Shown here: in pieces, positions 2,998 to 54,082 of the stretch
How positions within the stretch are numbered: the stretch's first letter is position 1
Layout of the letters: every line of letters begins with the position of its first letter
From: Parcubacteria group bacterium Gr01-1014_30
GTDB taxonomy: Bacteria > Patescibacteriota > Minisyncoccia > Minisyncoccales > 2-12-FULL-40-12
Assembly (NCBI GenBank): GCA_007376185.1
Contig: VMFS01000007.1
Span: 1,390-65,389, forward strand
Reading direction: 5' to 3'
DNA length: 64,000 nt
Made by a program: the position numbers and the translations under genes
The notes under the pieces: model-generated
Told to the model about the DNA's origin: nothing
Seen by the model: the letters and a program-made list of their open reading frames with translations, nothing else
Databases searched by the model: none

Positions 2998-3255
2998 AAA
3001 ATTATTGGAAACACTCTCTTAATATATTTTAGCATTTTTACAAAAAACCAGCCATTTTTAGATAAGGGGATAACTTAAGTAATAGTATTAAGTTCTGACA
3101 GCCGCAGCCCCGCCAAAAAATTCGCCTGCCCAAGCGAGGGTGCGGCGGGCGGGCTGGCTTCCTTAGTCAGGATTCGTTTGATAAAAAGTTCGGATTTCAT
3201 CCAGGAGGGACAGCCGTATTTGACGATAGGAAGCAAGTGGTGTTAATATAAATAT

Positions 3256-4230: not shown

Positions 4231-4559
4231 CTTTTCAACACAAGGAGTTGGCTTCGGGCAGGTGGAATAAGTTCTCTTTTTTCTTCCAGATGGCGAACAT
4301 AGGCAGTGAAGTTGGGAGAGCTTTGAAATGGCAGCAAAAAGATGCCAAAAACAGCCGCTTGGCCGCCGAACGGGCGCTTGAGCTTCTTGATTTGACCATC
4401 GAAGACCCCAAGAATCACACGCCGTCGCGACTCAAAGAACTTTGGCGGTTGAGAGAGTTTATGGCCGATTCTTTATTTTTTGGCAATGAGTACAAGACCG
4501 CTGAAAAATCCTGGCGCAGCTATTTTGACGCTTTTGCTTGGGCGTCTGCGCTTGAATAA
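4227..4559 (+). CDS. hypothetical protein
   Basis: 110-aa ORF, translationally coupled on both sides (4227 overlap; the next gene starts at 4560). Confidence 0.35.
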   Translation: MTFQHKELASGRWNKFSFFFQMANIGSEVGRALKWQQKDAKNSRLAAERALELLDLTIEDPKNHTPSRLKELWRLREFMADSLFFGNEYKTAEKSWRSYFDAFAWASALE

Positions 4560-5195
4560 ATGGTCAAGAAACTTTTTTTAGTTAGACATGGAGAAAGTGA
4601 AGCCAACGCCGCCAATGTTCAGCTTGGGGGCGAAGGGCATCTTACCGCCAAAGGCAAAATGGAAGCCAAGAAATTGGCCGGCAGATTCCGGAAAATTCCG
4701 GTTGATTTGATTTTGGCGTCGGATTACGAAAGGTCTTTGGAAACAGCAGAGATAATATGCAGGAAAATCCGCAAAAAACTTTTGGTAACGGAGCTTCTCC
4801 GCGAGCAACGTTCATCCAAAGAGTATTTGGGCAGGAGATATGAGCAGCCAAGAGATCCCGTTATAGCCCGTATAGCGGCCTTGCGCAAAAAATATATGAA
4901 CAAGAAGAACTGGCATTACTCTGACGAAGAAAATTTTTTTGATGCTTTGAAGCGGGCAAAAAAGTTTTTGCGCTTTGTTGAAAGAAGGAAAAAGAAAAAC
5001 ATTGTGGCAGTGGGACACGCCAGGTTCAACCGAGTGATTATCGGCGCCATGGTTTTTGGGAAGGCGTTCACGCCAGAGATATTTTACAAGCTGTACGACA
5101 ACTTCAAAACCGTAAACACGGGAATCACTTTTTGTGAACTTCAAGAAGGCAAATGGCGCATTATTACCTGGAACGACCACGCGCATTTGGGTTAA
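4560..5195 (+). CDS. histidine phosphatase (phosphoglycerate-mutase-like) family protein
   Basis: N-terminal LVRHGESEAN (RHG motif) and a later GHARF histidine. Confidence 0.8.
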   Translation: MVKKLFLVRHGESEANAANVQLGGEGHLTAKGKMEAKKLAGRFRKIPVDLILASDYERSLETAEIICRKIRKKLLVTELLREQRSSKEYLGRRYEQPRDPVIARIAALRKKYMNKKNWHYSDEENFFDALKRAKKFLRFVERRKKKNIVAVGHARFNRVIIGAMVFGKAFTPEIFYKLYDNFKTVNTGITFCELQEGKWRIITWNDHAHLG

Positions 5196-6104: not shown

Positions 6105-7313
6105 ATGATTGAAAATAGCATTGTTTACAGAAAGATCGGCGTAAAATATGAGTATCTGGCTTTGTCAAAAGCAGAGGGCTCTTTTGTTTGGGATAAAAGC
6201 GGGAAGAGATACATTGATTTTACATCTGTCTGGAATGTTACAAACCTTGGTTGGAATAATCCGGAGGTGACAGAAGCTCTTGTTGAACAAACAAAGAAAA
6301 ATACCCAAGGGCTCCTCTGGGGGTCAGACCCTATTCAGGAAGAATATGCGCGTGCTTTAACTGACACTCTGCCTAAAGAACTAGACGCTTGCATAAAAGA
6401 AACAGGCGGGACAGAATCGGTCGAGGTGTCAATAAAAGTTGCTCGCGCCTATACCGGCAGGAAAAAAATAATCGGCTTCAGGAACTCTTATCACGGCCAG
6501 CTTTTTGCTTCCTTAGCTCTGGGGAACCCTGCAGGTTCGCTAAAAAAAATAGAACCGCTTGTTCCCGAAATAATTTCGCTGGAATTTCCTCACGAAAGCG
6601 TCGGTAAAGATGGCTTTGAGCAGTTTGTTAATGACTTTGAGACAGTTCTCTCGCGCAGAGATGTTGCCGCGGTGGTTACGGAACCCGGAATAATCACAGG
6701 ATGGGGTTCAACGCTTGTCGCTTTTCCAGAGTTTCTCTCTGAAGTTCGCCGGCTTACTGAAAAATATGGGACACTTCTTATCGTTGACGAGGTAGGTACT
6801 GGTTTTTCGCGCACAGGAAAGCTTTTTGGAGTGGAGCATGAGAAAGTGGTCCCTGACATGATTGTCTTGGCCAAGGCAATTTCTAATGGAGCTGCGGCCA
6901 TCGGAACGGTAGTGGGCAAATCCGCGTTGTTTGAGCAAGCTTTAAATGACGCCGTTCTTGTTTCAACTTTTGGCTGGACGCCTCTGGCCTGCGCGGCGGC
7001 CCTAAAAACTCTTCAAATTCACAAGCGAGACAAGGTTTGGGAAATGGCTAAGGTTAAGGGCAATTACATTATGGAAGTTTTGAAAAAGAACATTGGCGGG
7101 AAAGTTATCGCTGTTCGGGGGAAAGGAATGGAGATTGGTCTTGAATTTACAGATGCCAAAACATGTGAGGAAGTTAGGCGAAAAGCTTTTGCCAACGGGC
7201 TACACATAGTCACTGGCAGTCAAAACAATATGCAGCTTATGCCACCCCTTACAATTCCGCAAGAAACACTGGAACAAGGTTTGGACATTTTGGTAAGGGG
7301 CATTCAGGAATAG
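6105..7313 (+). CDS. class III (PLP-dependent) aminotransferase
   Basis: GTESVE, SYHG, LLIVDEVGTGFSRTGKLFG and the PDMIVLAKAISNG Lys motif. Confidence 0.8.
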   Translation: MIENSIVYRKIGVKYEYLALSKAEGSFVWDKSGKRYIDFTSVWNVTNLGWNNPEVTEALVEQTKKNTQGLLWGSDPIQEEYARALTDTLPKELDACIKETGGTESVEVSIKVARAYTGRKKIIGFRNSYHGQLFASLALGNPAGSLKKIEPLVPEIISLEFPHESVGKDGFEQFVNDFETVLSRRDVAAVVTEPGIITGWGSTLVAFPEFLSEVRRLTEKYGTLLIVDEVGTGFSRTGKLFGVEHEKVVPDMIVLAKAISNGAAAIGTVVGKSALFEQALNDAVLVSTFGWTPLACAAALKTLQIHKRDKVWEMAKVKGNYIMEVLKKNIGGKVIAVRGKGMEIGLEFTDAKTCEEVRRKAFANGLHIVTGSQNNMQLMPPLTIPQETLEQGLDILVRGIQE

Positions 7314-10541: not shown

Positions 10542-10615
10542 AGTATTTATTTACGGATTTTTGAATGGAGCTAGAATAGACGTGCAAAGGTCAGTGAATA
10601 TTTAACCATGGTTGT

Positions 10616-12784
10616 ATGGCTTATCGTTGGGATTCTGGCGGCGGTATGGTTATGGAAACAAATTCAAAAGAAGTAAAAACATTTTATACCTGCCCAATGC
10701 ATCCCGAAGTCAGGCAGGATATGCCCGGGATGTGCCCTGAGTGCGGAATGCAGCTTGTTAAAATTCGAAATTCGACCACAGCCCATTTCCAATGGGCTGG
10801 GTCGCCCAGCCCTTTAGTAAGGGCTGTGGCGAAATTCGAAATTCGAAATTCCGCGCACGGCGCGGATAAACATGAGGGGCATAAAGCAGAAAGTTTTCTC
10901 AAAAAGTTCTGGGTGAGTTTAGTTTTAACAATTCCAATTGTGGCGTACTCTGAACTGCCGAAGTTGTTTTTCGGCTGGCAAGCGCCTGCTTTTTCCGGCT
11001 CTGAATATCTCCAGCTGATATTTGGTTCAATAGTATTTTTTTACGGCGGCTGGGTGTTTTTGGCTGGAGCTTTGAGAGAACTCCTGGCCAAACTCCCCGG
11101 CATGATGACACTCATTGGTTTAGCCACGACAGCGGCTTATCTGTGGAGCGTTTATGCTGTGTTCGTCGAGCAAGAACCGCTTTTTTGGGAGTTGGCAACT
11201 TTGATTACTGTAATGCTTTTGGGCCACTGGTTTGAGATGAGAGCAGTTCAAGGAGCAAGAGGGGCGTTACGAGAATTAGCAAAGTTGCTGCCAGATGAAG
11301 CTGAAGTAATATTTGAGGGTAAAACAAGAGCTGTACCTATTTCAGAGCTGAAAGTAGGCGACATAGTTTTGATAAAGCCCGGCGCAAAGGTTCCTGCTGA
11401 CGGCAAAGTTATTGAAGGGGAGTCAGACCTTAACGAATCAATCGTAACAGGGGAGTCAAAGCTTGTGCCCAAAAAGTTCTCCGAGGAGGTGATTGCAGGC
11501 AGCATTAACGGCGATGGAAGCTTGAAGGTTGAGGTGACCAAAATAGGCGAGGATACCTTTTTGGCGGGCGTGGCAAGATTGGTGGTTCAAGCGCAGGCGT
11601 CAAAGTCGCGACTGCAGTTGTTGTCTGACAAAGCGGCTTTGTATTTAACTATTATTGCGGTGGTTTCAGGCAGTATTACTTTGGTTGCGTGGCTTCTTTC
11701 CGGTTCTGAAATATCTTTTGCCGTTGCGCGTTTGGTTGCTGTTTTGGTGATTGCCTGCCCTCATGCTTTAGGCCTTGCAGTGCCTCTGGTTGCTTCAATT
11801 TCAACAAATATGGCGGCTTCTTCGGGCTTTTTGGTGAAGCAGCGTCTGGCGCTGGAGGCAGCAAGAAATGTGGACATAGTTCTTTTTGACAAAACCGGCA
11901 CTCTTACTAGGGGAGAGTTTAGCGTTGTCGGGGATTTGGATTCTGAAGTTTTACGTTTGGCCGCCGCCGTGGAAACGCAATCAGAACACCCAATTGCCAG
12001 AGCCATTGTGCAAGAAGCGCGCGAAAAAAAAGTTGCGCTCCCAGAGGTTAAAAACTTCAAAAGAATCCCCGGCGTTGGGGCTGAAGGTCTGGTTCAAGGC
12101 AAGCGCGTTTTTGTTGGGCACAAGGGCGGCGAAATTTTGTTGGAAGTGGACGACAAGGAAATAGGCGCAATCTCTGTTGCCGACGCAGTTAGACCCGAGT
12201 CAAAAGAAGCCGTGGCGGCCTTGCACGAGCAGGGATTAAAGGTTGCCATGATTACGGGCGACTCAAAAGAAGTTGCCAGCCAAGTTGCCAAAGAGCTTGG
12301 AATAGATGTTTATTTTGCTCGTGTGTTGCCGCAAGATAAATCATCTATCGTTAAAAAATTGCAAGAAGGGGATATTGAAGGTTTTGAAAATTGGAAATTG
12401 GAAATTGGAAATTCCAGCCGAAGGCTGGTTGTGGCAATGGTTGGCGACGGAGTCAATGATGCTCCGGCTTTAATGCAAGCAGACATTGGTATTGCGGTGG
12501 GAGCTGGCACCAACGTTGCCATTGAGTCTTCGGGCATTATTCTGGTTAGAAACGACCCGCGCGATATCCCCAAGATTATCCGTTTATCCAAGCTGACTTT
12601 TAACAAAATGCTGCAAAATCTTTTTTGGGCCACAATCTACAACATAGCGGCCCTGCCTCTGGCCGCAGGTGTCCTTTATTCCCGCGGCATTTTAATTGAA
12701 CCCGCCTTTGCAGCCGTGTTTATGTCGGCTTCAACCGTTATTGTGGCGATAAACGCCTTGCTGTTGCGAAGAGCGAAGTTGTAG
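10616..12784 (+). CDS. copA: heavy-metal (Cu-type) P1B ATPase with CPH motif
   Basis: N-terminal YTCPMHPE...MCPECGM metal-binding ribbon, TGES, CPH transmembrane motif (IACPHALGLAVP), DKTGTLT and GDGVNDAPAL. The start may be 10646 (MVMETN). Confidence 0.9.
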   Translation: MAYRWDSGGGMVMETNSKEVKTFYTCPMHPEVRQDMPGMCPECGMQLVKIRNSTTAHFQWAGSPSPLVRAVAKFEIRNSAHGADKHEGHKAESFLKKFWVSLVLTIPIVAYSELPKLFFGWQAPAFSGSEYLQLIFGSIVFFYGGWVFLAGALRELLAKLPGMMTLIGLATTAAYLWSVYAVFVEQEPLFWELATLITVMLLGHWFEMRAVQGARGALRELAKLLPDEAEVIFEGKTRAVPISELKVGDIVLIKPGAKVPADGKVIEGESDLNESIVTGESKLVPKKFSEEVIAGSINGDGSLKVEVTKIGEDTFLAGVARLVVQAQASKSRLQLLSDKAALYLTIIAVVSGSITLVAWLLSGSEISFAVARLVAVLVIACPHALGLAVPLVASISTNMAASSGFLVKQRLALEAARNVDIVLFDKTGTLTRGEFSVVGDLDSEVLRLAAAVETQSEHPIARAIVQEAREKKVALPEVKNFKRIPGVGAEGLVQGKRVFVGHKGGEILLEVDDKEIGAISVADAVRPESKEAVAALHEQGLKVAMITGDSKEVASQVAKELGIDVYFARVLPQDKSSIVKKLQEGDIEGFENWKLEIGNSSRRLVVAMVGDGVNDAPALMQADIGIAVGAGTNVAIESSGIILVRNDPRDIPKIIRLSKLTFNKMLQNLFWATIYNIAALPLAAGVLYSRGILIEPAFAAVFMSASTVIVAINALLLRRAKL
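10761..10850. repeat. in-frame palindromic insertion inside copA (90 nt)
   Basis: gaaattc heptamer copies flank ccacagccc...gggctgtgg. Two inner hairpins (cccatt-tcc-aatggg and ctggg-tcg-cccag). Encodes STTAHFQWAGSPSPLVRAVAKFEIRNS. Confidence 0.6.
12370..12428. repeat. in-frame low-complexity/hairpin insertion inside copA
   Basis: ggaaatt x3 followed by the hairpin ccagcc-gaa-ggctgg. Encodes DIEGFENWKLEIGNSSRRL just before the VAMVGDG motif, where E. coli CopA has no such segment. Confidence 0.55.
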
Positions 12785-12844
12785 AAGAGGGCTTGCCCTT
12801 GTTTGAGGGCTTGACTTCATTTTATGCTTAAATTAAGGTAAAAT

Positions 12845-13029
12845 AAGCGTAGACGGAGAAAGGTCGATTAAAGCGACCCCACATCGGAAGGGGGTCGGGG
12901 AAACCATCCGGTTTCCCCGTGTAGGAAAACAGGTCGCAAAGCGACCGTTAGAAACCGAGGGTTTCTAAAGAGCGAGCCCGAGCGTAGCGAAGCGAGCGAG
13001 GGCGAGCGACCTGATTTAGTATTACCACT
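12845..13029 (+). ncRNA. candidate structured 5' leader RNA, copy 1 (unknown class)
   Basis: About 185 nt between a taaaat -10-like box and the downstream ATG. Homologous to 53568-53776, with a conserved core and a differing central hairpin. Confidence 0.45.
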
Positions 13030-13188
13030 ATGCCTCAAGGTTACTGTGTAAGATGCAAAGCAAAAAGAGAAATGAAAAACGCCAAAGAGATTACCATGAA
13101 AGGAAAGGGCGGCACAACGAGAGCCGCTATGACTGGCGTTTGTGAAAAGTGCGGAACAAAAATGTACAGAATTTTGGGCAAAAAGTAG
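13030..13188 (+). CDS. small zinc-ribbon protein (DUF5679-like)
   Basis: 52-aa ORF not in the track: MPQGYCVRCKAKREMKNAKEITMKGKGGTTRAAMTGVCEKCGTKMYRILGKK (CxxC...CxxC). Confidence 0.55.
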   Translation: MPQGYCVRCKAKREMKNAKEITMKGKGGTTRAAMTGVCEKCGTKMYRILGKK

Positions 13189-13206: not shown

Positions 13207-13285
13207 GCCCCGCCCTCTATACTGTCTGACAATATCTGTAGAGTACTACAACGGCTTAGAGGGCGGGGTTTTGCTTTCTTTTCGC
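13207..13285 (+). terminator. probable terminator (long hairpin plus T-rich tail)
   Basis: ccccgccctcta (13208-13219) pairs perfectly with tagagggcgggg (13257-13268). It is followed by ttttgctttcttttc. Confidence 0.45.
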
Positions 13286-50086: not shown

Positions 50087-51846
50087 GCGAAATAACTTTT
50101 CTCGCCAAAACTAGTTTTAGGAAAAAGAACCAAAAGTTCGGCATCAAAAAATCCGACAGGCGCCAGCATGCTTACATTATCGGTAAAACCGGTGTGGGCA
50201 AAACCGCTCTTTTGAAAAACATGGCTTTGCAAGACATTCAAAGGGGCGAGGGAATTGCCATTATTGATCCTCACGGCGAGTTTGTTGAAGAAGTTCTGGA
50301 TTCAATACCTTCCAACAGGATAAACGACGTGGTCTACTTCAATCCGGCCGACCAGGAATACCCTGTCAGTTTTAACATTCTTGAGGTTCAAGAACCCGAG
50401 TATAAGCATTTGGTGGCTTCTGGTTTAATCGGCATTTTCACCAAGATTTGGGCAAATGTTTGGTCTGCTCGTATGGAGTATATTCTGTCAAACTGCATTT
50501 TGGCGCTCTTGGACACGCCGGGCACGACTCTGTTGGGAATACCGCGCATTCTGGTGGACCGCGACTACCGCCAGAGAATAATCAATAACTTGAAAGACCC
50601 GGTTGTAAAATCGTTTTGGGTTAACGAATACGAAGAATGGACCCCATCTTACCGCAACGAGGCTATAGCTCCGCTGCAAAATAAAGTCGGCCAATTTCTC
50701 AACGTTTCCTTAATAAGGAACATTGTGGGCCAGGCAAAAAGCACTATTGACATCCCAAAAATAATGAACGAGGGGAAAATCCTGCTGGTCAATGTTTCCA
50801 AAGGAAGGGTGGGGGAGGATAACTCTGCCATCTTGGGAGCTATGATCATCACCAAAGTACAGCTGGCCACCATGGAAAGAGTCAGGATTCCCGAAGAAAA
50901 GCGAAGAGATTTTTATCTTTACGTTGACGAGTTCCAGAATTTTGCCACCGACGCTTTTGTTAATATTCTGTCTGAAGCCAGAAAATATCGCTTAAACTTA
51001 ATCGTCGCCCACCAGTACATCGGCCAGTTAATCACCAGCAGTACCACGCACACCACGACAACGGTTAGGGATGCTGTTTTCGGCAACGTGGGAACGATGA
51101 TATGTTTTCGCGTGGGAGCGGCTGATGCCGAGTTTTTGGAACAGGAGTTTTTTCCCGAGTTCACGCAAAAAGACTTGGTCAATCTGCCAAACTACAATGT
51201 TTATCTAAAACTTATGATAGAGGGCGTTACTTCGAGGCCTTTTTCCGCTCAAACTCTTCCTCCTCCCAGCGTTGATAGCACAAAAAGCAGCCGCGAAAAA
51301 ATTATCAGGGTTTCCAGAGAACAGTATTCCAAAAAAAGAGCAGAGGTTGAGTCAAAAATCGCCACGTGGTCTGGAATCTTGGAGAAAACGCCCGAAGAAT
51401 CGCTTTTTTCAACGGCCGCCCAACCCGGAGTTTTATACGACGCCAAATGTTCTTCTTGCGGCAAATGGACGAAAACTGTTTTTAAACCGCAGGAAGGAAA
51501 ACCTGTTTATTGCAAGTCCTGCCTTAGGAAAATGGCGGCCGCAAAAGCCGGCGCTAAGGCTTCTGGTGCCACTCTGCCCGAAACAACTTTGGCGCAACCT
51601 TCGGCTTTGGGCGCTTTAGGAATTGAGTTTGGCACTTCACAGGCAGCTCCAAGGCCCACTTTTCAGCGTCAAGAAAAGAAAGTTGAGGAAAAAGAAATTT
51701 CCTATATTCCGCCCATGCCTACACCAAAGAAAAAAGAGAGAAAAGTTGTTAACCTGGAAGCGCTTCAAAAAACCTTGACCGAGGCCTTGGGAAAGTTCAA
51801 GAAGGAGCCGGAGCAAGAAGCTGACGCGGAAGAAAAAAGTAAATGA
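50083..51846 (+). CDS. TraD/VirD4- or HerA/FtsK-like P-loop ATPase with C-terminal zinc ribbon
   Basis: Walker A GKTGVGKT, Walker B LYVDEFQNF, RKYRLNLIVAHQYIGQL. C-terminal CSSCGKWTKTVFKPQEGKPVYCKSC and a low-complexity A/K/E tail. Confidence 0.7.
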   Translation: MSEITFLAKTSFRKKNQKFGIKKSDRRQHAYIIGKTGVGKTALLKNMALQDIQRGEGIAIIDPHGEFVEEVLDSIPSNRINDVVYFNPADQEYPVSFNILEVQEPEYKHLVASGLIGIFTKIWANVWSARMEYILSNCILALLDTPGTTLLGIPRILVDRDYRQRIINNLKDPVVKSFWVNEYEEWTPSYRNEAIAPLQNKVGQFLNVSLIRNIVGQAKSTIDIPKIMNEGKILLVNVSKGRVGEDNSAILGAMIITKVQLATMERVRIPEEKRRDFYLYVDEFQNFATDAFVNILSEARKYRLNLIVAHQYIGQLITSSTTHTTTTVRDAVFGNVGTMICFRVGAADAEFLEQEFFPEFTQKDLVNLPNYNVYLKLMIEGVTSRPFSAQTLPPPSVDSTKSSREKIIRVSREQYSKKRAEVESKIATWSGILEKTPEESLFSTAAQPGVLYDAKCSSCGKWTKTVFKPQEGKPVYCKSCLRKMAAAKAGAKASGATLPETTLAQPSALGALGIEFGTSQAAPRPTFQRQEKKVEEKEISYIPPMPTPKKKERKVVNLEALQKTLTEALGKFKKEPEQEADAEEKSK

Positions 51847-53546
51847 GCTCTGAAATCAAACTCTGCCAGAATTGTAAGAACGAGTTCACGATTGCACTGG
51901 AGGACTTTAACTTTTACGAGAAAATCAAGGTCCCGCCGCCTACCTTTTGTCCGAAATGCCGTTTTCAAAGACGGCTAGCGTTTTTCAACATTTTTAACCT
52001 TTATCAGCGAAAATGCGATTTTTGTAAAAACGAGATGATTTCAATATTTCCTGCCAACTCTCCTTATAAAATTTTTTGTCAAAAATGTTGGTGGTCTGAT
52101 AAATGGAGTTCTTTAGATTACGGTCGCGAGTACGATTTCTCGCAGCCGTTTTTTAAACAATTTAATGAGCTCTTACACGAGGTACCACTTATTGGTTTGG
52201 CGAATGACGCCACGAACGTAAATTCGCCATACAATAATATGTCCGGCCATCTCAAAAATTGTTATCTACTTTTCCATGCCGATTTTTCAGAGAATTCGGC
52301 TTACGGATTTCATATTAATCGCATGAATGATTGCCTGGACTCGTCAATTATGACTTCCTGTGAGTTATGTTACGACTCAATGCACGCTTATAAGTGTAGC
52401 CGTTGCGTAGGTTCAAGAAGTCAAGTTGTTAACTCTGTAGATTGTGCGTTTTTAAGAGACTCTTTTAATTGCCAGAGTTGTTTTGCTTCTGCAAATCTCC
52501 GGAATAAAAAATATTATATTTTCAACAAACCTCACAAAAAAGAAGATTATCTTGAAGAGATTAAAAAGTGGAACTTGGGTTCTTATAAAACTTATAAGGA
52601 AATTCAAAGATTGGCGGAAGAACATTGGAAAAAGTTTCCACCTAAACCTAATCAAGATGATTTTTCCGTAAACTCGATTGGAAGTTATGTGAACCAGGCT
52701 AAAAACTGTAAGCAGTGTTTTGAAGTTGTTGGGGCAGAAGATTCAAAATACCTCTTGATGTTATACGTCCCTCCGATTAAAGACTGTTATGATGTTTCGA
52801 GTTGGGGTAATAATATTTCTTTGTTTTATGAATGTTGCAATTGCGGAGAAAATTCATCCAGTCTGCGCTTTAGTTACGGTTCTGGGATAGATCTTTACGA
52901 CGCTGATTACTGTTACCAATCGCTCGGAGGCTCCAATCAATTTGGTTGCGTTTCAACGAGGAAGGGTGAGTATATGATTTTCAACAAACGCTATTCTAAA
53001 GAGGATTATGAGAAGTTAAGAGAAAAAATTATCGCTCATATGCAAGAAATGCCTTATACAGACAAGAAAGGCAGGGTGTATAAATACGGCGAGTTTTTTC
53101 CGCCGGAATTATCTCCTTTTGCTTACAACGAAACGCTGGCGCAAAACTTTTTTACCCTGAGCGAAGCCGAAGCTGAGTCGAAGGGTTTCCGCTGGCGAGA
53201 GCTGGAGAAAAAAGAATATCAGATTACTATGAAGGCCGCGGACTTGCCAGACCATATAAAGGATATCGGAGACGATATTTTGAAAGAGGTTATTTCCTGC
53301 CAAAAATGCGGCAGGGGTTACAAAATTATTCAAATGGAGCTTGATTTCTTGCGCAAAATGAATCTGCCTTTGTCGCGGGAGTGTCCTTTTTGCCGCATCA
53401 ACGATAAACTGGAGCTGTGGGTCAAAAACCTGCGGGTTTTTGACCGAGTTTGTTCAAAATGCGGCGCCCGTTTCCAAACGCACTATCCAAAAGAAGAGGT
53501 CTCGTATATTCTCTGCAAAAAGTGCTGGCTGGCAGAGTTTGTTTAG
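51843..53546 (+). CDS. cysteine-rich multi-zinc-ribbon protein, paralog 3 (divergent C-terminus)
   Basis: 567 aa. CQNCKNEFTIALEDFNFYEKIKVPPPTFCPKCR. Ends ...YILCKKCWLAEFV. The start overlaps the ATPase stop (ATGA). Confidence 0.8.
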   Translation: MSSEIKLCQNCKNEFTIALEDFNFYEKIKVPPPTFCPKCRFQRRLAFFNIFNLYQRKCDFCKNEMISIFPANSPYKIFCQKCWWSDKWSSLDYGREYDFSQPFFKQFNELLHEVPLIGLANDATNVNSPYNNMSGHLKNCYLLFHADFSENSAYGFHINRMNDCLDSSIMTSCELCYDSMHAYKCSRCVGSRSQVVNSVDCAFLRDSFNCQSCFASANLRNKKYYIFNKPHKKEDYLEEIKKWNLGSYKTYKEIQRLAEEHWKKFPPKPNQDDFSVNSIGSYVNQAKNCKQCFEVVGAEDSKYLLMLYVPPIKDCYDVSSWGNNISLFYECCNCGENSSSLRFSYGSGIDLYDADYCYQSLGGSNQFGCVSTRKGEYMIFNKRYSKEDYEKLREKIIAHMQEMPYTDKKGRVYKYGEFFPPELSPFAYNETLAQNFFTLSEAEAESKGFRWRELEKKEYQITMKAADLPDHIKDIGDDILKEVISCQKCGRGYKIIQMELDFLRKMNLPLSRECPFCRINDKLELWVKNLRVFDRVCSKCGARFQTHYPKEEVSYILCKKCWLAEFV

Positions 53547-53567
53547 TCGCTGTGGTATAATGAAGTA

Positions 53568-53776
53568 GCAGGAATGAAGAGAAAGGTCGAGTTAGTCAAT
53601 ATAACACCAAAATACCCCACTTCGGAAGGGGGTCGGGGAAACCCACAGGTTTCCCCGTATAGGAAAACAGGCTTTCGCCGGAGGCGAAAACGCCAGAAAC
53701 CGAGGGTTTCTGGAGAGCGAGCCCGAGCGTAGCGAAGTGAGCGAGGGCGAGCGACCTAATTTGGTGTTACCACAAG
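53568..53776 (+). ncRNA. candidate structured 5' leader RNA, copy 2
   Basis: Preceded by the extended -10 tggtataat (53553-53561). Shares ccccacNtcggaagggggtcggggaaacc-NNNN-ggtttccccgtNtaggaaaacagg and agaaaccgagggtttct...gagcgagcccgagcgtagcgaagNgagcgagggcgagcgacct with 12845-13029. Confidence 0.5.
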
Positions 53777-54082
53777 ATGATTTTTCTTTACGTATTTTGT
53801 AAAGACGTCAACGAGGCCAAAACAATCGGAACTTTGTTGGTAACACAGAGGATTGCCGGCAAAGTGGATATAATACCAGTTCAATCAATTTTTCGAGAAA
53901 GAGAAGGGATTCAAGAGCGAGAAGGAGCGGCAATGATTGTAAAGACCATTGATAAGAAAATTCAAGACGTAGAAGATGTTGTTCGGCAGCATCAGCTTAA
54001 CAGGACTTCCTGCATTGCGTCTTTTGCGCTTTATCGCTTGAACCGCGAATTCAAAGAGTGGCTGGTGGCTTCCACCGCCTAA
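53777..54082 (+). CDS. cutA: CutA1-like divalent-cation-tolerance protein (putative)
   Basis: 101 aa. AKTIGTLLVTQRIAGKVDIIPVQSIF...MIVKT...REFKEWL matches the CutA pattern loosely. Confidence 0.5.
   Translation: MIFLYVFCKDVNEAKTIGTLLVTQRIAGKVDIIPVQSIFREREGIQEREGAAMIVKTIDKKIQDVEDVVRQHQLNRTSCIASFALYRLNREFKEWLVASTA

Follow-up and report, generated by a model that had tools for sequence, protein, structure and literature searches.

Two copies of a structured RNA in the window

The window analysed here is a stretch of 64,000 nucleotides (64 kb) from contig VMFS01000007.1 of Parcubacteria group bacterium Gr01-1014_30 (positions 1,390 to 65,389), and our subject is a structured RNA element that it carries twice. 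Copy 1 lies between copA, which encodes a heavy-metal ATPase (Pfam E1-E2 ATPase with the heavy-metal-binding domain HMBD, 10616-12784), and a DUF5679 gene that follows it directly (13030-13188); copy 2 stands directly before cutA (Pfam CutA1, 53777-54082). Pfam agrees here with an earlier sequence-only reading of this DNA, which had named the neighbours as a Cu-type ATPase, DUF5679 and CutA. The same reading had described 12845-13029 and 53568-53776 as homologous and structured. We found that the repeated RNA itself occupies 12877-13029 and 53602-53776; the two copies align over 193 columns with a mean identity of 86%, and both fold much more stably than shuffled sequences (z = -5.4 and -4.7). 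Two blocks of 20-23 nt are confined to the two copies within the window, where shuffles expect 0. In the pairwise alignment long identical blocks alternate with unrelated but self-complementary segments, as the earlier description of copy-specific hairpins had it. A covariance model built from 67 relatives scores the copies at 95.9 and 96.2 bits and, run with filters off, detects no third copy in the window, the next-best match reaching 13 bits. The conserved 3' end, GCGAC, stands 19 nt before the ATG in copy 1 and 21 nt before it in copy 2, close to the 20 nt first estimated.

The features of the two copies are listed below, all on the plus strand; L138 and L001 are element-free relatives of the DUF5679 and cutA loci.

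12839-12844 (+): -10-like box TAAAAT, the host promoter of the copy 1 unit, outside the element; the region is near-identical in element-free L138
12859-12866 (+): native leader motif AAAGGTCG, also in element-free leaders; earlier read as the 5' strand of a helix P1
12877-12889 (+): leader-class 5' motif of copy 1, CCCCACAUCGGAA, of the form (A)CAUCCCAnAUCGGAR found in 55 copies of the family; its CCCC can pair with the G-run
12883-12887 with 13011-13015 (+): closing helix of copy 1, AUCGG/CUGAU, short and of the family type
12890-12896 (+): G-run junction strand of copy 1, GGGGGUC, near-invariant alignment columns 8-14
12897-12918 (+): P3 hairpin of copy 1; five pairs covary (for example columns 18/36: GC 41, AU 24)
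12919-12931 (+): junction strand of copy 1, G-UGUAG-GAAAACA, the most conserved single strand; GGAAAACA is invariant in 67 distinct cores
12932-12947 (+): variable hairpin P4 of copy 1, GGUCGC AAA GCGACC
12948-12968 (+): P5 hairpin of copy 1, UUAGAAACC-GAG-GGUUUCUAA; two basal pairs covary UA/CG/AU in the family
12970-13010 (+): P6 of copy 1 and a C; GA-rich hairpin of the form GAGC...GCGA, where the element has its conserved 3' boundary
13011-13029 (+): tail of copy 1, CUGAUUUAGUAUUACCACU, reaching the ATG of the DUF5679 gene; also in L138 without the core
53556-53561 (+): -10 box TATAAT, the host promoter of the copy 2 (cutA) unit; TAGAAT is its counterpart in element-free L001
53582-53589 (+): native leader motif AAAGGTCG, also in element-free leaders
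53602-53611 with 53760-53769 (+): closing helix of copy 2, 10 bp, in minimum-free-energy folds
53615-53634 (+): 5' motif of copy 2, CCCCACUUCGGAA, then the G-run GGGGGUC
53635-53656 (+): P3 hairpin of copy 2, covariation as in the family
53657-53669 (+): junction strand of copy 2, G-UAUAG-GAAAACA
53670-53692 (+): variable hairpin P4 of copy 2, GCUUUCGCC GGA GGCGAAAAC, a P4 type common in the family
53693-53713 (+): P5 hairpin of copy 2, CCAGAAACC-GAG-GGUUUCUGG
53715-53755 (+): P6 of copy 2 plus C, one base different from the P6 of copy 1
53756-53776 (+): tail of copy 2, reaching the cutA ATG; 53760-53769 lie in the closing helix

The basal pairs of P5 are UU/AA in copy 1 and CC/GG in copy 2, a compensatory change inside the window itself. 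P6, 40 nt in length, is near-identical in the two copies, with one base between them, whereas P4, the P3 loop and the base of P5 are wholly different; because of this mosaic pattern, the sequences suggest that material has been exchanged between the copies. No match to the 40-nt P6 was found anywhere in GTDB genomes. P6 is predicted to fold as a hairpin with tandem G.A mismatches; the sequence-only reading had taken this segment for a purine-rich tail. It had also proposed that AGGUCG and CGACCU close the RNA. Such a pairing can form in either copy, but it draws on the CGA by which P6 is closed in all members of the family described below and is thus at best a local alternative; as a closing helix it is not seen in the family, and the alternative folds of aggtcg are not supported as a defining feature.

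The tail segment GUAUUACC (13018-13027 and 53764-53773) is the reverse complement of GGUAAUAC, which is universal in the 530-loop region of 16S rRNA and occurs in the 16S gene of locus L107 (3657-3664). This may be a coincidence.

An uncatalogued family in Parcubacteria

The Rfam scan that the earlier reading had called for returned 0 matches at the gathering threshold in the whole 64-kb window (Rfam 15, 4227 models) and only noise at E<=10 on the two copies (best score 15.3 bits against a gathering score of 88), which bears out the view that the RNA belongs to no known class. On 58 related loci Rfam reported only tRNA, tmRNA, RNase P RNA and 16S rRNA; the element was covered only by the RNase P match in L120, because there it is an insertion in RNase P RNA. 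Nothing similar to the element was found by phage BLAST or in a viral contig scan, and literature searches, including those with conserved sequence strings, found no description of it. The family is uncatalogued.

A scan of GTDB genomes with GGAAAACAGG..GAGCGAGNNNNGAGCG gave six matches (Verrucomicrobiota, Acidobacteria, Gammaproteobacteria), for which nhmmer showed no wider similarity and which we regard as chance; the pattern was too specific to the P6 of this genome. The regions upstream of cutA homologues do not contain the element. Relatives were reached by using the open frame across copy 1 as a mock protein in an exhaustive search of protein representatives, which returned four spurious 'proteins' whose contigs bear clear RNA homologues. 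These gene-caller predictions from public metagenomes, P0026-P0029, run across the element at L014 83-250, L015 145-357, L016 1200-1646 and L017 1088-1444, and their entries could be flagged as non-coding. The positions shared by the homologues gave the pattern GAAAACAG-N(10-40)-GAAACCGNGGGTTTC, and one metagenome scan with it yielded at least 120 loci on contigs of Parcubacteria, a lineage of the candidate phyla radiation (CPR). The duplication is thus not private to the two loci of the window. All family counts given here are among the matches listed from that scan, from which 124 distinct instances were examined; because the pattern fixes part of P5 and of J3/4, divergent branches are under-sampled. 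The covariance model matched 100 times in the first source set and 34 times in the second. Exact-sequence look-ups placed three contigs in Candidatus Nealsonbacteria, Parcubacteria DG_74_2 and Wildermuth-/Yanofskybacteria; the contigs numbered ERZ1292xxx stem from the Hainich aquifer. Copies can be close together: there are two in the 64-kb window and three in the 9-kb locus L020.

The family core reads (R)RA-GGGGGUC / P3 / G-NNNAG-GAAAACAG / P4 / G / P5 / R-GAGCG...P6...GCGA-C, with P5 as (NN)AGAAACC-GWG-GGUUUCU(NN). From 67 distinct cores RNAalifold predicts P3 and P5, in which 99.3% of alignment cells are paired; sliding the partners lowers this to 32-67%. Cells in which both partners have changed number 111 in P3 and P5, against 32+-4 in shuffles (0 of 500 shuffles reach the observed value). 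Homologues with compensatory changes, which the earlier reading had asked for, are abundant. The upper part of P5 is invariant in the 67 cores, but that part was fixed by the search pattern; L035, a weaker match to the model that lacks the pattern, has the compensatory change GAGGAC/GUCCUU in P5. Closing helices, where present, differ in each copy yet remain complementary over 8-14 bp, and six of them hold a G.U pair that would be A.C on the opposite strand, which fixes the transcribed strand. The earlier proposal of a conserved structured leader RNA is supported; the RNA is on the plus strand, in the 5' leader of the downstream gene.

Other parts of the RNA are free to change. P4 has 64 distinct sequences in the family, and 52 of these fold to a hairpin of at least 4 bp, so that the self-complementarity of the copy-specific hairpins extends well beyond the window; its base is often G-C, C-G and tandem G.A/A.G, and its reduction to a stub of two pairs in six members marks it as peripheral. 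P6, the GA-rich hairpin, ranges from 16 to 93 nt. A helix P2, pairing CCCAC with the G-run, was left out of the model because its register is inconsistent between members. About 40 copies carry the 5' motif (A)CAUCCCAnAUCGGAR together with a 3' tail ...GCGAC-(C)URAYUUNGUAUUACCAC-U-AUG that runs into the start codon. Of the 35 occurrences of the tail motif in 842 kb, 30 have a core upstream. Leader copies always have the orientation of the downstream gene. No consistent pairing of the tail with P5, J5/6 or the 5' motif was found in the family, and no association between tail variants and the type of P5 base was seen. Reading the tail as the -10 promoter of a leaderless mRNA was rejected: its sequences are mostly TGTATT or TGTAAT, without the critical A at -11, and the ATG is too near. 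At most it is possibly a relic of such a promoter.

We compared the element with known RNA folds. By eye, no HDV-like, hammerhead, hairpin-ribozyme, K-turn or sarcin-ricin-like motif fits, and none of the known self-cleaving ribozymes in Rfam (hammerhead, twister, twister-sister, pistol, hatchet, hairpin, HDV-like, glmS) matches. The likeness of GUAUUAC and AGAAAC to loop B of the hairpin ribozyme is superficial, with no model score behind it. Neither ARAGORN nor Rfam ever calls the element as a tRNA or tmRNA; only genuine neighbouring tRNAs are called. Our findings establish a Parcubacteria-wide family of small elements, of about 130-200 nt, with a defined fold, strand and covariation.

Genomic contexts

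The element is followed by about 30 different housekeeping families and by tRNAs. Ribosomal proteins identified downstream by Pfam are L14 (rplN), L15 (rplO), L27 (rpmA), L33 (rpmG), S7 (rpsG), S11 (rpsK), S14 (rpsN) and S18 (rpsR), to which L32 and S21 are added by eye. Further Pfam assignments downstream are EF-Tu (tuf), EF-G (fusA), NusA, NusG, two sigma-70 family proteins and prolyl-tRNA synthetase (ProRS, proS); adenylate kinase (adk), the delta and delta' subunits of DNA polymerase III, MreB, MraZ, DivIC and pyrophosphatase (ppa); and M48 and M50 proteases, CarS and a PD-(D/E)XK nuclease. At least two copies lie between ribosomal-protein cistrons (L30 to L15 and S17 to L14, the upstream genes assigned by eye). 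These are many unrelated housekeeping families; they do not form a metal regulon.

This bears on a suggestion of the sequence-only reading, that the RNA is a metal- or ligand-responsive leader, and the relatives, standing before unrelated housekeeping genes and tRNAs and once within RNase P RNA, speak against it. In its broader form the suggestion would be a riboswitch in which the purine-rich junction binds a metal or a global signal ((p)ppGpp, nucleoside triphosphates, Mg2+) and switches leader pairings. A conserved multi-helix junction with covariation and variable peripheral stems, placed in 5' leaders, is what such a device would look like; the tail of copy 2 (53760-69) can pair upstream, after which no more than 7 nt separate it from the AUG, GCGACC segments compete in copy 1, and the inverted segment of stand-alone copies could pair with either direct repeat (see below). 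However, no one pathway, of a metabolite or of a metal, accounts for the gene set; the metal-flavoured genes are only the two of the window and copA, and copA is without the element. No conserved expression platform, sequestering helix or terminator after P6 was found, and pairing between tail and core shows no covariation by eye. Circular permutation, tRNA leaders and insertion in RNase P RNA are atypical of riboswitches, and presence of the element differs between close relatives. We consider a riboswitch quite improbable, and one specific for metal far more so. The comparison with riboswitches and ribosomal-protein leaders in general has the same outcome: the element shares their 5' leader position and their conserved junction with variable stems, but it has no coherent regulon or operon specificity, no conserved expression platform was found for it, and it also stands before tRNAs and in RNase P RNA. 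Where an autoregulatory ribosomal-protein leader would belong to one operon, the core precedes at least nine ribosomal-protein genes and many non-ribosomal ones.

At tRNA genes the 3' boundary is exact. In three lineages GCGA(C/U) adjoins the +1 position of a tRNA with no spacer: L042 and L118 (tRNA-Ala), L098 (tRNA-Thr), and L054 and L069. Other copies stand 20-80 nt downstream of a tRNA, and their closing helix copies the 3' strand of its T-arm and acceptor (L016, L021, L032, L033). Stand-alone copies lie between intrinsic terminators in L032, L034 and L035, and in L107 a copy lies between a tRNA and the promoter of the 16S rRNA. These contexts make it conceivable, though hardly probable, that the element is a stable trans-acting small RNA on strong promoters, a scaffold or decoy released by RNase P, RNase Z or another nuclease. 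Some copies have terminators of their own (L032, L034, L035), closing helices copy the acceptor and T-arm strand of a neighbouring tRNA (L021, L032, L033), and RNase P would, given the exact abutment to tRNA +1, release an RNA with a defined 3' end. On the other side, the leader class shows no evident processing site or 3' end signal besides GCGAC, the copy embedded in RNase P RNA is not releasable, and no partner is known.

Two details of the tRNA contexts were noted in passing. The tRNA-like sequences of L054 (about 3050-3140, minus strand) and L069 (about 6810-6900, plus strand) start with GCCAATGTAGCTCAGTTGGTAGAGCA..., are interrupted after the anticodon region and leave ARAGORN silent; the tRNA there probably contains an intron. 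In L042 (11588-11659, minus strand) and L118 (4992-5062, minus strand) the tRNA-Ala lies between the element and a protein gene whose ATG begins 2 nt past the discriminator base (...GGUCCA-CU-AUG), so that 3' processing of the tRNA would leave a near-leaderless mRNA.

Six copies are circularly permuted (L027, L062, L073, L084, L085, L120), with P3 open and the P6 side closed. In L120 the host is itself a structured RNA: 4518-4976 encodes an RNase P RNA of the bacterial class A type (117.8 bits, above the Rfam threshold), in which the permuted module, at about 4866-4965, forms the tip of P19, and the 3' strands of P4 and P1 come after the insert.

The leader copies could instead be a cis-regulatory device of the host, with a protein or the ribosome reading the junction and P5 and co-ordinating the translation or stability of highly expressed housekeeping genes. 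The downstream genes are enriched in ribosomal proteins, EF-Tu and EF-G, NusA and NusG and sigma factors; the distance from element to ATG is fixed and the unstructured tail conserved; P5 is invariant in sequence, as a protein site would be; and the element has been kept before rplO and DUF5679 in diverged lineages. The lineage also seems to do without Shine-Dalgarno pairing. Genes of the window almost lack Shine-Dalgarno sequences (for example at starts 3440, 7353, 16820, 58335 and 60740), for many of them the ATG comes 5-12 nt after a -10-like box, so that the sequence suggests leaderless or very short-leader mRNAs, and the 16S rRNA of L107 (4620-4650) ends GGAUCAUUUUUUU, without the CCUCC anti-Shine-Dalgarno. 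Against a host regulator stand the occurrence of the same core before tRNAs, alone between terminators and inside RNase P RNA; the permuted copy of L085, where the tail exits another helix and so has no fixed geometry to the start codon; the close relatives without the element at both window genes; and target duplications, which are not expected of a regulator. No candidate protein was identified. We regard this explanation as unlikely.

Signs of insertion

Close relatives of both window genes lack the element. In L001, whose CutA protein is 82% identical, the promoter is followed by GGGGGAAAGGTCG, 20 nt and the ATG, with the element absent. In L138, from the same aquifer project and 92% identical at DUF5679, 55 nt of promoter and AGAAAGGTCG are in common with the window, as are the coding sequence and the 16 nt that precede its ATG (TTTTGTATTACCACT), while about 140 nt of core are absent and the covariance model finds no match. 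L139, a more distant DUF5679 relative, has neither core nor tail. At DUF5679 and cutA, the element is a structured insert of 135-175 nt in a leader of otherwise 40-50 nt.

Direct repeats of host sequence, 12-88 nt in length, flank 24 of 118 copies (median longest shared substring 9). Their layout is a repeat, a spacer, the first 9-17 nt of the repeat copied in inverted form, (C)AGA, the core, GCGAC and the repeat again. The inverted copy forms the 5' strand of the closing helix, and in 10 of 23 cases its pairing starts with the first nucleotide of the downstream repeat. In L121 the element is followed by a second copy of the last 67 nt of rplR, stop codon included, directly before rpsE; the repeat amounts to 50 nt plus 19 nt in L038 and to 16 nt of leader in L096, is a tRNA 3' end in L021, L032 and L071, and is the 5' end of dnaK, in a diverged copy, in L019. 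Tandem units occur in L016 and L027 and a nested insertion in L015. Core-deleted relics complete the series: in L042 (minus strand, around 11062) the 5' motif and G-run are joined to the 3' strand of P6 and the tail before an ATG, and in L026 (plus strand, around 5674) a minimal P6 hairpin and the tail precede an ATG. Permuted copies, element-free close relatives and direct repeats with an inverted copy indicate insertion. Unrelated contexts, presence or absence in close relatives, target duplications and permutations are established by these data, and the element is independent both of the function of the downstream gene and of chain connectivity; over short evolutionary distances it is gained, lost and duplicated. 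These features point to an insertion element and not to a dedicated regulator of DUF5679 and cutA.

The tandem units were seen in L016 (1200-1620) and at the contig end of L027 as head-to-tail units of about 210 nt with one element each; in L016 the 3' end of the preceding tRNA-Leu is copied at the end of every unit, and the copied T-loop carries a small inserted hairpin. Both contigs are short, and the units are possibly an assembly effect.

Some of these features would also fit inert repeat DNA, in which hairpins of the kind found in miniature inverted-repeat transposable elements (MITEs) or repetitive extragenic palindromes (REPs) would matter only as DNA, if they matter at all, and the RNA fold would be incidental. 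The element is multicopy (two in 64 kb; three in the 9-kb L020) and intergenic, with presence/absence polymorphism, tandem units, nested insertions and deletion relics. We think this explanation improbable all the same: compensatory changes hold the helices as sequences drift, with G.U pairs on one strand only; junction strands are near-invariant across lineages whose L15 is 58% identical; leader copies are always oriented with the downstream gene; and neither conserved terminal inverted repeats nor a fixed short target duplication is present. Miniature repeats such as Correia/NEMIS, the Rickettsia RPE and REP/BIME have conserved terminal inverted repeats and short target duplications of fixed length. 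Like the element, they are small, multicopy, intergenic and strain-variable, and can land in RNA genes and leaders and be co-transcribed. The element differs from them in its ends (CCCAC... and ...GCGAC, not inverted repeats of each other), in its flanking repeats of variable length (12-88 nt), in a closing helix that differs per copy and is an inverted copy of the target, and in its strong covariation at the RNA level.

Other sources of the direct repeats were considered and do not fit: a diversity-generating retroelement (TR/VR), a retron (a1/a2), integrase att sites and CRISPR-like duplication are disfavoured because the repeats are identical and not A-mutated, vary in length and involve many targets. 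No reverse transcriptase or integrase is visible adjoining the copies with direct repeats, whose neighbourhoods were not systematically annotated.

A second repeat family, with hairpin arms CCCCGCCCTCTA...TAGAGGGCGGGG, occurs at 13208-13268 of the window, in L055 (2119-2163) and in L124 (5610-5708). In the window TTTTGCTTT comes after the hairpin, which has the appearance of a terminator for the DUF5679 gene; in L076 (14076-14124) the same arms interrupt the P6 loop of a copy of the structured element.

A proposed insertion-prone element with a possibly self-processing RNA

We favour, tentatively, the reading that the element is prone to insertion and encodes an RNA that folds autonomously and is probably self-processing; as a whole this reading may well not hold. 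The element would lie in a host leader, with a start codon or the 5' end of a tRNA immediately behind it, and the host promoter would transcribe it together with the leader. The RNA would then fold by itself into a multi-helix junction made of the G-run, P3, GNNNAG-GAAAACAG, P4, P5, GAGCG and P6. P4, P6 and the closing helix would be free to vary, the last even being derived from an inverted copy of flanking host sequence, and the conserved junction would serve the element and its transcript and not the sensing of a metal. The junction may be self-cleaving or recruit an RNase, which would separate the module from neighbouring RNA and fix the 5' end of the downstream RNA. From the arrangement of the copies, mobility as an ongoing process is likely. 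Self-processing of the RNA module, taken by itself and argued by analogy, is rather doubtful.

The case for self-processing is that a compact junction with few invariant strands, permutation, multiple copies and unrelated contexts make up the profile of a small ribozyme, and the sharp boundary of GCGAC at tRNA +1 fits a processing role. Hammerhead types I-III and twister P1/P3/P5 are self-cleaving ribozymes found in circularly permuted forms. The element resembles them in its compact junction, near-invariant strands and variable stems, in that any helix may be open, and in having several copies per genome in unrelated gene contexts. It differs in its larger core, of about 90 nt, in matching no Rfam ribozyme, and in its conserved tail to the start codon and its target duplications, which those ribozymes do not have. 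Co-transcribed mobile elements are known to carry a ribozyme where they meet host RNA, as with HDV-like ribozymes and the R2 non-LTR retrotransposons. The similarity there lies in a structured RNA on an insertion element, a host promoter and a boundary with host RNA. Unlike these, the element has no reverse transcriptase or any open reading frame, its host belongs to a bacterial CPR lineage, and it has no nested double pseudoknot (by eye) and no pairing partners for the G-run.

Several observations weigh against this interpretation. Before rplO the element is kept in two lineages whose L15 is 58% identical, and before DUF5679 it is kept, with compensatory differences, in a lineage at 76% identity; the downstream genes lean towards the translation apparatus. 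A host function accounts for such orthologous retention and such a lean at least as well as a selfish element does. RNase P RNA is essential, and a self-cleaving insert in it would cut it. Self-cleavage is argued by analogy with permuted, context-independent ribozyme families alone, and the RNA resembles no known ribozyme model in Rfam. The invariance of P5 is partly an artefact of the search pattern. The long direct repeats on short contigs (L016, L052, L121) may be assembly effects, although those of L019, L021, L038, L058 and L096 are internal to longer contigs. Finally, no transposase, integrase or reverse transcriptase is linked to the element, and no neighbourhood screen for them was made.

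A bolder form of the idea, which we consider unlikely, sees in the family a new, non-autonomous kind of mobile RNA element, whose junction would be a self-cleaving or priming ribozyme of a novel class. It would multiply by way of an RNA or cDNA intermediate that is attached in front of the 5' ends of cellular RNAs (tRNA +1, short leaders, start codons); snap-back or template-switch synthesis would explain the inverted target copy, the duplications of 12-88 nt, the permutations and the tandem units. For the combination of a long variable target duplication with an inverted target copy as closing helix we found no counterpart among described mechanisms. In its presumed way of working the element comes nearest to permuted self-cleaving ribozymes or to co-transcribed mobile elements that bear a ribozyme. 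In every membership test that was run to a result the element fell outside the system compared, and it is a member of no known system.

CPR genomes are tiny, and yet a structured RNA of roughly 150 nt is kept in many copies before core genes and tRNAs. If the element is a ribozyme or a mobile RNA, it would represent a new catalytic or mobile class together with a new mode of DNA insertion, by duplication plus inverted copy; if it is a host device, it would show how a lineage apparently without Shine-Dalgarno pairing organises the expression of its key genes. In either case it offers a compact natural RNA fold for structural study, and its covariance model would improve the annotation of thousands of CPR genomes, in which the element is sometimes called as a spurious open reading frame.

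Host leaders and neighbouring genes

The motif AAAGGTCG stands just after the -10 boxes of element-free cutA leaders (L001, L003, L012, L013), in the element-free DUF5679 leaders of L138 and L139, and before copA of the window (10586-10593). Judged from these leaders, GAGAAAGGTCG is native leader sequence and not part of the repeated RNA; the block gagaaaggtcg, which the sequence-only reading had listed as shared by the two copies, is indeed shared, but it is present in the leaders of element-free relatives and lies outside the element. More broadly, in several Parcubacteria AAAGGTC(G/A) follows -10-like boxes at a distance of 5-25 nt, close to where transcription probably starts, whether the element is there or not; it occurs 93 times in 825 kb against about 50 expected. 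Leaders that carry it include those of cutA, DUF5679, copA and groEL, and it was seen at L001 46-53, L003 about 2968, L012 about 1023, L013 1024-1031, L068 about 8740, L070, L092 6284, L138 494-501 and L139 about 697. As it marks copA, cutA and DUF5679, a link to metal or stress may belong to this motif and not to the structured RNA.

The copies had also been described as equipped with promoters. A consensus promoter scan did not call the -10-like boxes at 12839-12844 and 53556-53561; the promoter region of copy 1 is, however, conserved in L138. In the family a -10 box at a fixed distance upstream of the 5' motif is not enriched (8 of 33, against 5-6 of 33 in control windows), so a promoter is not a family property.

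Two further points concern cutA. The public annotation of the window protein, P0004 (72 aa, 99% identical), starts 29 codons later than our open reading frame of 101 aa, the CutA1 length common to all homologues. The gene is preceded at 51843-53546 by one for a large cysteine-rich protein with many CxxC pairs, ending ...CKKCWLAEFV, in which no real Pfam domain was found. A similar gene end upstream of cutA in L013 suggests conserved synteny, and related stretches are present in L002 (1-1551), L012 (3-989) and L013 (2-1012).

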